Assembly (NCBI GenBank): GCA_963737905.1
Contig: CAVTUQ010000002.1
Span: forward strand, 352,001 to 416,000
Direction: 5' to 3'
Source of the DNA: an uncultured delta proteobacterium
GTDB taxonomy: Bacteria > Desulfobacterota > Binatia > UBA9968
DNA length: 64,000 nucleotides
Shown here piece by piece: positions 11,858 to 15,479 of this stretch. Under the pieces are notes generated by a model. It was given only the letters and a program-made list of their open reading frames with translations, had not been told where the DNA came from and searched no databases. The position numbers were made by a program, and so were the translations under genes. Position 1 is the stretch's first letter. Each line of letters starts with the position of its first letter.

Positions 11858-12616
11858 TTACCCCGCCCGCATCTTCAGTAGCGTCGGAATATCTATTTTC
11901 TCCTGATACGGTCGCAGTTCTTCTTCTCTGCGCTGGACGCCGAGCATGGCCATGCGGTCGGCGAGCTCGTTGCCTTCGGTGCCGACGTGGCCGGCGACGT
12001 GGGTGAGTTTCAGTTCTTCTTCAATGCGCCGGTAGATCGCGTAGCAGTCCTGGATGATTTCCAGGTTCCTGATCTCGCCGCCGGGTTTTTTCCAGCCTTT
12101 CCTTTCCCAGTTGGGTGCCCAACTGCGAATGCAGTTGATGGAGTACGCCGAGTCGCTGCGCACCTCGACGGTGTTGCCAGTCCTGATTTCCGCTTCGGCC
12201 ATGCGCAGTGCGTGATAGAGCGCGTTCAGTTCGGCGGTGTTGTTCGTCCCCATGGGGTTGTAGAGGCCATACCACAGCTCAGCGAGTTTGCCGGCTCGAT
12301 ACACCACGATACCGGAGCCGGCATGGCCAGGGTTGGGGTCACAGGCACCATCGCAATAAATGCTGACATCTAACTGTTGAGAGGGCTGGGCGCCACGGCG
12401 TTCACTGTCCCGCGTGCCGGCTTTTTGTCTACCGGCTTTTTTGGACGGAAGGCTTGCGTAGCCGCCGCGACCAAAGGCTTGCTCGGCTTGTGCACGGGTC
12501 GGGAAGGACTTGAATCGCGCTCCGGCATACTTGTCCACGACCCGCTGAGTGGTCGCCCAATCCGAGAATACACCGGTCTGCCGTCCCGCCCACACCACGT
12601 AAAATTTCCGAGCCAT
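11858..12616 (-). CDS. rnhA: Ribonuclease HI with N-terminal hybrid-binding (caulimovirus viroplasmin-like) domain
   Basis: 'KFYVVWAGRQTGVFSDW...ARFKSF' hybrid-binding domain; 'IYCDGAC..NPG', 'TNNTAEL', 'SDSAY', 'HVAGH.G..GNELADRMA'. Confidence 0.93.
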   Translation of the reverse strand: MARKFYVVWAGRQTGVFSDWATTQRVVDKYAGARFKSFPTRAQAEQAFGRGGYASLPSKKAGRQKAGTRDSERRGAQPSQQLDVSIYCDGACDPNPGHAGSGIVVYRAGKLAELWYGLYNPMGTNNTAELNALYHALRMAEAEIRTGNTVEVRSDSAYSINCIRSWAPNWERKGWKKPGGEIRNLEIIQDCYAIYRRIEEELKLTHVAGHVGTEGNELADRMAMLGVQRREEELRPYQEKIDIPTLLKMRAG

Positions 12617-12676
12617 GATGAGTCAAATGCCTTTTGGTAGAAACTGGTTTTCCGGGTTTCGTATGAAGAAAGTTCT

Positions 12677-12755
12677 ACCACCGAGGCACAGAGTTCCTAG
12701 CGCGGAGTAATGATTAAAAAACTCTTTACTCCGCGTTCTCAGCGCCTCCAGGGTG
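12677..12755. repeat. Intergenic imperfect inverted repeat (REP-like)
   Basis: Perfect 10-bp arms cgcggagtaa (12701-12710) and ttactccgcg (12726-12735), with weaker outer arms caccgaggc / gcctccagggtg. Confidence 0.65.
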
Positions 12756-12779
12756 CAATCTCCGATCTGCGAGAGCCTC

Positions 12780-12803
12780 TGACAGCGTCCCCCGGACGCG
12801 TCA
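12780..12803 (-). promoter_or_regulatory. Putative bacterial SECIS element for selO
   Basis: mRNA UGAC-GCGUCC-GGG-GGACGC-U-GUCA: stem with bulged U and G-rich apical loop, ~20 nt 3' of the in-frame UGA at 12814-12816; no U-tract follows. Confidence 0.75.
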
Positions 12804-12804
12804 C

Positions 12805-14301
12805 TCAGGTACCTCAGAAAGTTTGGTAGCGCTCTTGTCCTTCCGGTGCAGGTTCGGCAAAGGCGGCAAACTCCGGTTGATCGTCGAACGGGCGCGATAG
12901 AATCTTGAGCAAGGTCGCAAAGGGCACGTAATCTTCGCGTTCCACTGCAGCGCTCAAGGCTTCCTCGACGCGATGGTTGCGCGGGATGAACGTGGGATTG
13001 GCGCGCCGCATCGCCTGCGCCCGCGCCAAAGGCGCTACCGCCTCGCGCGCAAGCCGCGCCCGCCAGTGTCCACTCCAGAGATCGTAAGCCGACGGATCGG
13101 CGAACAGCGCGCGAATCGGTTCCTCCTGGCCTAAGGCCGCATCGGCGAGGTGACGGAAAGCCAACGTGTAGTCAACACTCTTGCCCTCCATCGCGGTAAG
13201 CAACCCCGTGGCAAGGTTGAGATCGGCCTCGTCCTCACTGACCAGTCCGAGCTTCGCGCGCATGCCTTCTAGCCAGTGGCGTTCGTATTGTTCCGGAAAA
13301 GCATGGACCACCTGAGTGGCGCGTGCGATGGCGCGAGTTTCATCGGCATCGATCAAGGGTAAAAGCGTCTCCGCCAGCCGCGCCAGATTCCACTGCGCGA
13401 TCTTGGGTTGATTGCCGTAAGCATAGCGGCCGTGGGTATCGATGGAGCTGAAGACCGTTGCCGGATCGTAGTGATCCATGAAGGCGCACGGGCCGTAGTC
13501 GATCGTCTCGCCCGAGATCGCCATATTGTCGGTGTTCATCACGCCATGGATGAAGCCCACGTGCATCCAGCTGGCAATGAGCGCCGCTTGTTTGTCGCAC
13601 ACGCGCTCGAGCAATCCCAGGTAGGGATTCCCATGGTCCTTCAGCTCCCGGTAGTGGCGATCGATAACGTAATCGGCCAGGCGACGCACCTTGGTCTGCT
13701 CGCCGCGGGCCGCAAAAAATTGAAAGGTACCCACGCGAACATGGCTGGCGGCAACGCGCGTCAAAACCGCGCCTGGCAGTGCGCTCTCGCGAAAAACGGG
13801 CTCACCCGTAAGAACCGCGGCAAGCGCCCGGGTCGTCGGAATACCAAGCGCGTGCATCGCTTCGCCGATCAAGTATTCACGCAACACGGGCCCGAGGGCC
13901 GCCCGGCCGTCGCCGGCGCGCGAAAAGGGAGTGGGACCCGACCCTTTGAGCTGAATATCGCGACGATGGCCGTTGCGGTCGATCACTTCTCCCAAAAGCA
14001 GGGCCCGCCCGTCGCCAAGTTGGGGCACGAAGCCGCCGAACTGGTGGCCGGCGTACGCTTGGGCCAGCGGCGCCGCTCCTTCGGGTGTCTCGTTGCCGGC
14101 AAAGATCCACGCGCCTTCCTCGGAATCGAGAGCGCTGGCATCCAGCCCCAATTCTTTCGCCAATTCACGGTTAAGCTTAACCAACCTAGGCCGCGCCGCT
14201 TGAGCCGCCTTCCAGGGTCGGTAGAAGCCCTCAAGTTCGCGCGCATAGGTATTGTCGAAGGCGAAGCGCGCGATAGCAGGGCTGTTAAGGGCGTGCGTCA
14301 T
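12805..14301 (-). CDS. selO: Protein adenylyltransferase SelO/YdiU, probably with selenocysteine at the C-terminus (...YQTF-U-GT*)
   Basis: '[10 protein letters not shown]', 'LGDGRA', '[18 protein letters not shown]', '[11 protein letters not shown]', 'IDYGPC', 'NP..IPRNH'. The 3' end reads TTC TGA GGT ACC TGA, where homologs end F-C-G-T-stop. Confidence 0.92.
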
Positions 14302-14399: not shown

Positions 14400-15479
14400 T
14401 TAGACCGGACTTGGAATCGGCATGTCGTAAAGTCGCGCGACGTTTTCCCGCACCAGTTTGGCGCGCAACCCAGCGGGTAGATCGCCTAGGTCCCGGGCTA
14501 CGATCTGGCGGGAATGGGGCCAGGTCGAGTTGCCGTGGGGGAAGTCGTTGGACCACATGCAGTTGTCGGCGCCCCACCACGACAGTATGTGGCCGCCGAC
14601 AGCGTCATTAAAGAAAGTGGCATAGACCTGGCCGTGAAAATATTCACTTGGAAGTTTCTTTATGGCGAGACCTTCGCGGTTGATTCCATGGCGCTTGAAG
14701 TAGTAGTCCCACTGTTCGAGTAAAAACGGAATCCAGCCGATCTCGTTTTCGACCAAGACGAGCTTAAGCCGCGGATATCGCTCCAACACGCCGGAGAAGA
14801 TGAGCTCGTAGAGGCTGTTGATGGACTGGAACAATTTCATGTTGACGCTGTTGCTCTCCTGCGTGAGACCGCCTTCGGCAGCAGGGTTAACGCCGAAGCT
14901 GCGGGTACGGCTGTAGCCGTGGCCGCTCAAAATGTGCAGGTTGACAGGCATATCGAGGTCCTGAGCCGATGCCCAGAACTTGTCATAGTGCGCAGAGGCG
15001 AAGGGCAGTTCGGGCGGCGGGACTTGCCATATCACGGAGCCGTGCAGGCCGGCCTTGCGACAGCGCTCCTGCTCTTTGACGGCGCCGTCGATATCGTACA
15101 TAGACAGCATTGCGATGCCGATGAGACGGTCGGGGGCGGCCTGGCAGTAGTCGATCAGCCAATCGTTGTAAACGCGGGCGCAGGCCGCCTCCAGCCCGGG
15201 ATCGTCCAGGCTCAGCGCCTTTAACCCGTGAGTGGGATAGAGAACTTCCGCGCTGACGCCGTCGGCTGCCATTTCAGCGACGCGCTTGGTCTTATCCATG
15301 GCACCGGGCGAATCGGTGGGTCTTTGCCCGCCAAATCCAGGGGCGCGATCCTGAAATGCTTTAGGGAGTTGTTTTTTCCAAAGACCCTCCGGCTCAATGA
15401 CGTGCGAGTCCGACGAGATCAAAACTTCGTCGATGACGACGTTGCTCTCTTTCCCATAGGTTCGTTCAATAATGGCCAT
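14400..15479 (-). CDS. Amidohydrolase family protein (Amidohydro_2)
   Basis: 'ISSDSHVIEP', 'DGVSAEVLYPT', 'PVNLH', 'LVENEIGW', 'WSNDFPH'. Confidence 0.9.
   Translation of the reverse strand: MAIIERTYGKESNVVIDEVLISSDSHVIEPEGLWKKQLPKAFQDRAPGFGGQRPTDSPGAMDKTKRVAEMAADGVSAEVLYPTHGLKALSLDDPGLEAACARVYNDWLIDYCQAAPDRLIGIAMLSMYDIDGAVKEQERCRKAGLHGSVIWQVPPPELPFASAHYDKFWASAQDLDMPVNLHILSGHGYSRTRSFGVNPAAEGGLTQESNSVNMKLFQSINSLYELIFSGVLERYPRLKLVLVENEIGWIPFLLEQWDYYFKRHGINREGLAIKKLPSEYFHGQVYATFFNDAVGGHILSWWGADNCMWSNDFPHGNSTWPHSRQIVARDLGDLPAGLRAKLVRENVARLYDMPIPSPV

Follow-up and report, generated by a model that had tools for sequence, protein, structure and literature searches.

SelO (YdiU) proteins are protein adenylyltransferases with a pseudokinase fold, and the available sections of a 2020 review (PMC7278666) describe the bacterial enzyme as regulated through a disulfide that links an activation-loop Cys to a C-terminal Cys, the latter being selenocysteine (Sec) in higher eukaryotes, and give the SelO Cys as invariant in all prokaryotes. 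A Sec-containing bacterial SelO has already been predicted: the available text of the deep-Sep study (mSystems 2025, PMC12013277) presents, on computational grounds, the first Sec-containing bacterial SelO homologues, in Desulfosediminicola ganghwensis IMCC35004, and the available part of a 2026 review (PMC13188914) lists the Desulfosediminicola SelO as PF02696, WP_136798779.1. Here we describe the selO gene in a 64,000-nucleotide (nt) stretch of DNA, hereafter the window, from the metagenome-assembled genome of an uncultured delta proteobacterium of the order UBA9968 (Desulfobacterota; Binatia; GenBank assembly GCA_963737905.1, contig CAVTUQ010000002.1, positions 352,001 to 416,000 of the forward strand). 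This gene lies on the minus strand and ends with an in-frame UGA (12814..12816) that is followed by two further codons, a second UGA, and a small hairpin. The first of these UGA codons, UGA-496, very probably encodes Sec at the regulatory C-terminal Cys position of SelO (we put the probability at roughly 0.9), as an earlier note had proposed from the letters of the window; the proposal is supported here by the alternation of UGA and Cys forms among orthologues, a conserved Gly-Thr-stop ending, the tie of the hairpin to the UGA, and the presence of selA, selB, and selD. Relative to the published prediction, the new part is a widespread soil lineage with frequent Sec/Cys exchange.

The D. ganghwensis SelO resembles the one described here in its predicted Sec UGA, its downstream structure like a Sec insertion sequence (SECIS), and its Cys and other TGA homologues, both cases being computational; it differs in that D. 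ganghwensis is a cultured marine sulfate reducer whereas ours is an uncultured soil lineage, a comparison made by text description only (PMC12013277, available text). The earlier note had stated that bacterial SelO is normally described as Cys-only, a description that the 2025 prediction contradicts, and that it knew of no characterised Sec form, with which our literature searches agree, as they returned no experimental work on bacterial Sec-SelO. The main text of BSepDB makes no mention of SelO, and a text match to "selenoprotein O" in PMC1794560 was discarded, since the matching words are "selenoprotein origin". Animal SELENOO, a mitochondrial protein, belongs to the same family and carries Sec near its C-terminus at the place of the prokaryotic Cys (PMC7278666, available sections). 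Both proteins also have an AMPylating pseudokinase fold, on which a redox role is presumed. The SECIS of animal SELENOO, however, is a kink-turn far down the 3' untranslated region (UTR) that is read by SBP2 and eEFSec, unlike the 15-nt hairpin found here 14 nt past the UGA, which would presumably be read by bacterial SelB. The origin of Sec in this order appears to be independent of animal SELENOO, because the outgroups of the order's SelO all have Cys.

Two precedents for the placement of the hairpin come from proteins unrelated to SelO, namely the DUF466 "KCU-star" selenoproteins and rat thioredoxin reductase. The former (NF033934, Campylobacter/Helicobacter) end in Lys-Cys-Sec-COOH, according to the available text of a preprint (10.1101/2022.07.06.499078), and their SECIS would lie in the 3' UTR, since a Sec that is the last residue leaves room for a SelB-binding hairpin only past the stop codon. 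A SECIS outside the coding sequence had been called unusual for bacteria; the 3' UTR position itself was found here as claimed, and the Lys-Cys-Sec-COOH selenoproteins provide a natural precedent that tempers the claim of rarity. A literature search returned no useful statement on a bacterial SECIS past the stop codon. Arner and colleagues reportedly produced rat thioredoxin reductase in E. coli in 1999 with an engineered SECIS after the stop, and an engineered SECIS past the stop is standard practice for the expression of thioredoxin reductase; a bacterial SECIS need not be translated. The selO locus would be a naturally occurring case of a very small bacterial SECIS placed wholly past the stop, the design also employed when C-terminal selenoproteins are expressed in E. 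coli.

On the minus strand the 3' end of the gene reads TAC CAA ACT TTC TGA GGT ACC TGA, followed by GTGAC-GCGTCC-GGG-GGACGC-T-GTCAG, so that the ending Y-Q-T-F-UGA-G-T-stop, with its first TGA at 12814-12816, is present in the window exactly as first reported. Under translation table 11 the open reading frame (ORF) spans 12814..14301 and encodes 495 amino acids, whereas the coding sequence (CDS) read through the first UGA spans 12808..14301 on the minus strand and encodes 498, from Met1 to Phe495-Sec496-Gly497-Thr498; with TGA translated as U, the product ends in ...ERYQTFUGT. The codons for Gly497 and Thr498 (12808..12813, minus strand) are translated only if the UGA is read, and the true stop would be the UGA at 12805..12807 (minus strand). 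In the ORF list of the window, no other ORF of at least 50 amino acids covers the hairpin. The product is a predicted SelO protein adenylyltransferase of the YdiU family: it matches Pfam PF02696 over residues 14-467 (394 bits against a cut-off of 22.8, E 9.2e-118) and NCBIfam NF000658, "YdiU family" (579 bits against a cut-off of 431), and it scores below the cut-offs of two SelO "equivalog" models (441 against 850 and 413 against 900), from which we take it to be a YdiU-family member that belongs to neither of those narrow equivalogs. The chains 6iii, 9jym, 6k20, and 6eac in the PDB match it over nearly the whole length (E ~1e-104), and the motifs HGVMNTDNM and D-Y-G-P are identical or nearly so in all four. 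We take HGVMNTDNM and D(Y/F)GP to be catalytic-region motifs of the SelO pseudokinase fold. U496 aligns with the C-terminal Cys of these chains, each of which has two residues after that Cys, and thus with the conserved antepenultimate Cys of SelO. The Cys-type structures end in ...(V/I)-S-C plus two residues, whereas this subfamily ends in T-F/Y-(C/U)-G-T.

An order-wide search with the C-terminal 201 residues of SelO covered 123 species genomes, 45 of which contain SelO. After removal of duplicate loci and identical sequences, 25 genomes had readable 3' ends with UGA, giving 26 distinct sequences, and another 23 distinct sequences, from 21 genomes, had Cys, encoded by TGC. UGA and Cys forms alternate among orthologues of 75-90% identity, and all 26 UGA forms end in T-(F/Y)-UGA-GGN-ACN-UGA. 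In these, the first and second positions of the Gly and Thr codons are invariant and only the third varies (26/26), so that relatives differ here by synonymous changes only, while the 3 nt past the terminal stop vary freely, a pattern expected if the two codons past the UGA are translated. The terminal stop is TGA in every UGA form (26/26) and is divided among TGA (18), TAA (3), and TAG (2) in the Cys forms. The hairpin GCGTC-N5/6-G(A/G)CGC follows in 26/26 UGA forms as against 0/23 Cys forms; one of the 26 departs from the common form by a CGUGC loop and a U-G wobble, another by a loop of 6 nt, and the rest read GCGUC-CGGGN-GACGC. The mean minimum free energy (MFE) of the 30 nt past the stop is -8.8 kcal/mol in the UGA forms and -3.5 kcal/mol in the Cys forms. 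Where UGA and Cys forms have near-identical downstream flanks, the substitutions of the Cys form cluster in the 5' arm, e.g., ACGCGTCCGGGCGACGC to ACGAGGCAGGGAGACGC, and the hairpin therefore appears to decay specifically upon replacement of the UGA. Alternation of Cys and UGA with a conserved GGN-ACN-stop and a covarying hairpin had been put forward as a test of the Sec assignment, and the UGA relatives keep both the Gly-Thr-stop and the hairpin without exception; compensatory changes in the stem were the part that did not materialise within the main clade, as described below.

These data bear directly on the possibility that the first UGA is an ordinary stop, with SelO 3 residues shorter and its Cys lost, and that the hairpin serves messenger stability or termination. 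Gene callers and databases treat the UGA in this way, and among the 120 public protein clusters closest to the gene, 57 stop exactly at T-F/Y and 62 end in T-F/Y-C-G-T. An ordinary stop would, however, leave unexplained the synonymous-only variation of GGN-ACN-TGA in 26/26 forms next to 3 nt that vary freely, as well as the fixed 14-nt spacing of the hairpin and its decay exactly in the lineages with TGC. It is also at odds with the lack of a T-tract terminator and with an order that as a whole is predicted to use Sec, and we consider it very improbable. Public sources call the closest proteins "YdiU family protein", "protein adenylyltransferase SelO", or "serine/tyrosine/threonine adenylyltransferase", none of these names bearing a selenoprotein label, which agrees with the early remark that gene callers lose only 3 residues here and that the Sec form is easily missed. 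About half of the closest public entries (57/120 clusters) would therefore be 3 residues short and, in the names shown, without a selenoprotein label.

The core SECIS-like hairpin occupies 12785..12799 on the minus strand in the 3' UTR, with its 5' arm GCGUC at 12795-12799, its loop CGGGG at 12790-12794, and its 3' arm GACGC at 12785-12789, and it starts 14 nt past the Sec UGA and 5 nt past the second UGA. An extended stem, UGAC ... GUCA, surrounds the core at 12780..12803 (minus strand) in this genome only; its outer pairs are not conserved in relatives and are broken by a C>T change at 12783 (plus strand) in near-identical strains, and they probably lie outside the functional element. Of the longer hairpin described initially, it is accordingly the core that stands, the conserved part being only a 5-base-pair (bp) stem with a 5-nt loop. 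The distance from the UGA to the G-rich loop, estimated before at about 20 nt, is 19 nt, and the reported lack of a terminator U-tract agrees with a terminator scan that found no terminator-like site in 12300-13000. The published constraints on a bacterial SECIS (bSECIS), as given in the available part of the 2026 review (PMC13188914), are a loop of 3-9 nt, a stem of 4-16 bp, a G within the first two positions of the loop, a distance of 16-37 nt between UGA and loop, and an MFE of -7.5 or lower. Checked by hand, the hairpin lies within them, with a 5-nt loop, a 5-bp stem, a G at loop position 2 followed by another G, and an MFE of about -7.9 to -8.8 kcal/mol, although relative to the bSECISearch consensus model it stands at the small, weak end and wholly outside the CDS. 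The 6.7-Mb genome has a single copy of the core motif, and matches to a loose stem pattern number 22 where 21 are expected; the idea that the hairpin is a repeat element was rejected on account of this uniqueness. A second conserved block, …TTTCACCAGCTTCGC…AGAACACTTTCTG…, lies past the hairpin region in relatives (e.g., L054, L094, L062); it is present in 7/26 UGA forms and 6/23 Cys forms, is absent from the window, and is not tied to Sec.

Metagenome contigs were scanned with the pattern Tyr-x-Thr-(Phe/Tyr)-UGA-Gly-Thr-UGA, which matched at least 118 stretches, of which 80 loci were examined. Among the matches listed, SelO lies upstream in 31, and the other 49 are chance matches; the canonical hairpin is found in 29 of the 31 SelO loci, the other two being the contigs L219 and L232. 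In L219, a member of the clade at 85% identity, the stem is rebuilt to 9 bp, three of them G-U pairs, around a GGU loop, and it starts 11 nt past the UGA. L232, whose SelO ends at ~1100 of its contig, reads ...R-T-Y-UGA-G-T-UGA, and its 7-bp stem, CUGCUCC/GGAGCGG, encloses the loop GUC and starts 12 nt past the UGA. The L232 SelO has 54% identity over the C-terminal part and ~60% over 365 amino acids and is equally near alphaproteobacterial SelO, and the contig is best interpreted as a second, separate SelO lineage with UGA. When the distinct UGA forms of the order and of the metagenome matches listed are pooled, the canonical hairpin is present in 49/51 and the 14-nt spacing in 47/49. The rebuilt hairpins of L219 and L232 indicate that it is the structure of the hairpin rather than its sequence that matters.

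In the phylum as a whole, the same search found SelO in 19 of 401 sampled genomes, among which only this genome has the UGA. In a comparison of species genomes restricted to the best 80 loci, those of at least 75% identity comprised 19 with TGA and 15 with Cys, whereas below 75% all 45 readable loci had TGC or TGT; the latter carry titles of Alpha-, Beta-, and Gammaproteobacteria, Acidobacteriota, Actinomycetota, and others. The ending T-F/Y-C-G-T is present in 60/60 Cys-codon loci among these best 80, in line with the Cys ending that the earlier note had ascribed to many bacterial SelO proteins. As the window comes from contig C2 of a metagenome-assembled genome (6.7 Mb, 46 contigs, 87.5% complete, 6.7% estimated contamination), the TGA might in principle have arisen as an error of sequencing, assembly, or binning, or the gene might be a pseudogene that was recently inactivated by mutation. 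The TGA is, however, shared by 25 genomes of the order, 19 named GenBank records, and at least 31 metagenome contigs, and contigs of three soil-metagenome runs from three separate studies, 95-99% alike, have 12805-12816 without a difference in a gene that is otherwise intact and conserved. Confirmation of the TGA, which had been called for at the outset in raw reads, was in this way obtained from assembled contigs of the three DNA studies and from the related genomes, and an artefact or pseudogene is effectively refuted. The contigs of the three studies also carry C>G at 12790 (plus strand), which makes the loop CGGGC, the consensus of the clade, in addition to the change at 12783.

The genome also contains most of the machinery for Sec. 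Contig C29 carries selA (467 amino acids), selB (639 amino acids), and selD side by side; SelA and SelD match their profiles at 525 and 381 bits, and SelB is full-length, with GTPase, beta-barrel, and winged-helix 2 and 3 domains. The selD gene (C29:70900-72150; L012, L016) itself has an in-frame Sec UGA, ...KAAG-U-AAKLGP, with its best hairpin 26 nt past the UGA and a loop of AGUUU. Two fdhA-like molybdopterin oxidoreductase genes (C29:34777-35745 and C36:54480-54887) have the Sec site ENQAR(V/I)-U-HSSSV and GC hairpins 11-12 nt past the UGA, with loops AGUUU and GGUCU. The GC contents of contigs C2, C29, and C36 agree (0.546, 0.549, and 0.551). SelA was found in 110 of the 123 genomes of the order, a tally that includes the unpublished genomes G484, G006, and G012, and by this gene content the whole order is taken to use Sec.

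Another conceivable outcome is that the UGA is read mostly as Cys or Trp, by a near-cognate tRNA or by Cys on tRNA-Sec, with the hairpin as a general stimulator of read-through. The inserted residue cannot be told from DNA, and the fdhA and selD hairpins of this genome have loops of a different kind, both of which points leave room for such decoding. Yet the position is the one at which Sec replaces Cys in animal SELENOO (PMC7278666, available sections), selA, selB, and selD are present along with other selenoprotein genes, the geometry fits the bacterial SECIS model, and a lineage needing Cys could simply retain TGC, as its sisters do. We regard insertion of Cys or Trp as about as improbable as an ordinary stop.

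Several observations weigh against Sec at UGA-496. The loop CGGGN lacks the G-U of the fdhA and selD loops in this genome (AGUUU, GGUCU), and covariance models returned no Rfam SECIS family at E up to 10 in 12650-12900, a negative that carries little weight because bacterial SECIS elements are too diverse for these models. Shuffled versions of the 91-nt region fold at least as well in 155/200 cases (z 0.78), and the MFE fold of the region itself is without the described stem, which shorter pieces from the UGA do form; as the fold of the single sequence is not beyond chance, the weight of the case rests on comparison. Among the 26 sequences of the main clade there are 0 compensatory pairs and only one change from U-A to a U-G wobble, so that the hairpin is supported by its strict non-coding conservation, by its tie to the UGA, and by the two independently rebuilt hairpins. 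The sole RNA evidence is a metatranscriptome contig covering 12851-13018, inside the CDS and short of the UGA. Lastly, the gene for tRNA-Sec (selC) was not found in this assembly, and thus, of the four Sec genes that the earlier note had named for a check, only selA, selB, and selD were recovered. A genome scan with Rfam RF01852 gave tRNA-Leu and tRNA-Ser as best matches (the best, at 46.6 bits, being tRNA-Leu), a scan with Rfam of 19 kb around selABD gave no selC, ARAGORN with default and relaxed settings gave as its sole relaxed match a 75-nt terminator-like hairpin and no selC, and neither motif regular expressions nor blastn with the near-identical selC of relatives found anything in this assembly. 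Only 44 tRNA genes were counted in the assembly, and selC is present in 5/5 well-assembled relatives (74-77 bits, near-identical across the order), lying 10-53 kb from selA in three of them. We assume that the absence is an assembly gap, since at 87.5% completeness a missing selC is not proof of absence. Both the missing selC and a hairpin that is small, with a loop unlike the other SECIS loops of the genome, would also suit an ordinary stop at the first UGA, and they were included in our judgement of that alternative.

If UGA-496 encodes Sec, SelB with GTP and Sec-tRNA(Sec) would bind the hairpin (5-bp GC stem, loop CGGGN) 14 nt past UGA-496 and would deliver Sec once this codon sits in the A site; Gly and Thr would be added next, and the ribosome would terminate at the second UGA. 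The second UGA would be read as a stop because it lies only 5 nt ahead of the hairpin, and the whole SelB-binding hairpin would therefore lie in the 3' UTR. We infer Sec insertion and SelB binding from the standard bacterial pathway, and the redox role likewise: by analogy with the regulation of other bacterial SelO proteins, Sec496 is probably a redox switch on AMPylation. The activation-loop Cys of the solved gammaproteobacterial structures, located in F-I-C-N-H, aligns with Ser285 here, whereas this subfamily has an invariant Cys in D-Y-G-P-C; D(Y/F)GPCAF is present in 78/78 of the loci, out of 80, in which the motif search met the region. Because Ser285 replaces the usual Cys while the DYGPC Cys is invariant, Cys272 of the activation segment (13486..13488, minus strand) is a candidate partner of Sec496, and a Sec496-Cys272 selenenylsulfide in this subfamily is our guess.

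Dozens of natural Sec/Cys orthologue pairs of 75-90% identity exist in this bacterial enzyme with solved relatives, and such pairs make possible a direct test of the contribution of Sec to the redox control of AMPylation by SelO. A bolder proposal, which we offer tentatively and hold to be possible though doubtful, combines a selenium-dependent two-output switch, a minimal class of SelB ligand, and Sec-to-Cys reversions that show the cost of replacing Sec. Were it true, cells with selenium would make a full-length SelO whose AMPylation is redox-controlled via Sec496, and cells without selenium, or in which the release factor wins, would make a stable, redox-blind AMPylase 3 residues shorter. 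The 15-nt hairpin, with its G-rich, U-less loop and its location wholly in the 3' UTR, would then be a distinct minimal class of SelB ligand, and the repeated reversions, each accompanied by the appearance of another Cys at position -5, would reveal the requirements for replacing Sec.

In gene trees the SelO of the order forms one clade (SH-aLRT 99) in which Sec and Cys forms are interleaved. Quick trees need 8, 10, and 11 Sec/Cys changes, of which well-supported branches force only 1-2; two of the trees left out 13 distant or tail-less rows (L042-L053, L095), and one analysis left out short rows (L032, L093, L094, L096, L097, L098). A single gain of Sec from Cys near the base, with several later reversions, would account for the distribution, since the outgroups are all Cys and many Cys forms in the order keep a decayed hairpin, the root and the direction of the changes being a matter of interpretation only. 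The residue five positions upstream of the Sec/Cys differs between the forms: it is Arg in 16, His in 9, and Cys in 1 of the 26 UGA forms, and Cys in 17, Arg in 3, Gly in 2, and Tyr in 1 of the 23 Cys forms, while in the closest 120 public clusters it is Cys in 53/62 Cys forms and 0/57 truncated forms. The association may depend on shared descent, and an independent-pairs test of the -5 Cys against the Cys form had only 2 supported pairs and was without power. In the window this codon is CGC (Arg491, 12829-12831); UGA forms have CGC or CAT and Cys forms mostly TGC (C-Y-x-T-F-C-G-T), the change from CGC to TGC being one transition. In the SelO gene tree, sequences of one family (f2) nest deep in another (f1), and one genus (g21) has UGA and Cys forms apart, which suggests transfer within the order or poor resolution. 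Some genomes have more than one SelO end: G516 (L081, L098) has two different UGA-form ends on two contigs, and G489 and G490 (L072/L097, L073/L096) each have a full Cys form and a second C-terminal fragment ~3.5 kb off, and these second copies or fragments may be strain mixtures or duplications.

Downstream of selO is a gene for an RNase H1-type protein (RNase_H plus an N-terminal hybrid-binding domain; 11858-12616, minus strand), and upstream is a gene for an Amidohydro_2 protein (14400-15479, minus strand), neither neighbour having an obvious functional tie to SelO. Between selO and the RNase H gene lies an inverted repeat of 10 perfectly matched bp, CGCGGAGTAA ... TTACTCCGCG, whose arms flank a loop of 15 nt rich in A/T (12701-12735, minus strand). 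The repeat gave weak, chance-level matches to microRNA hairpin models, was not called a terminator, and might mark the place where the SelO transcript actually ends or serve for the binding of a protein.

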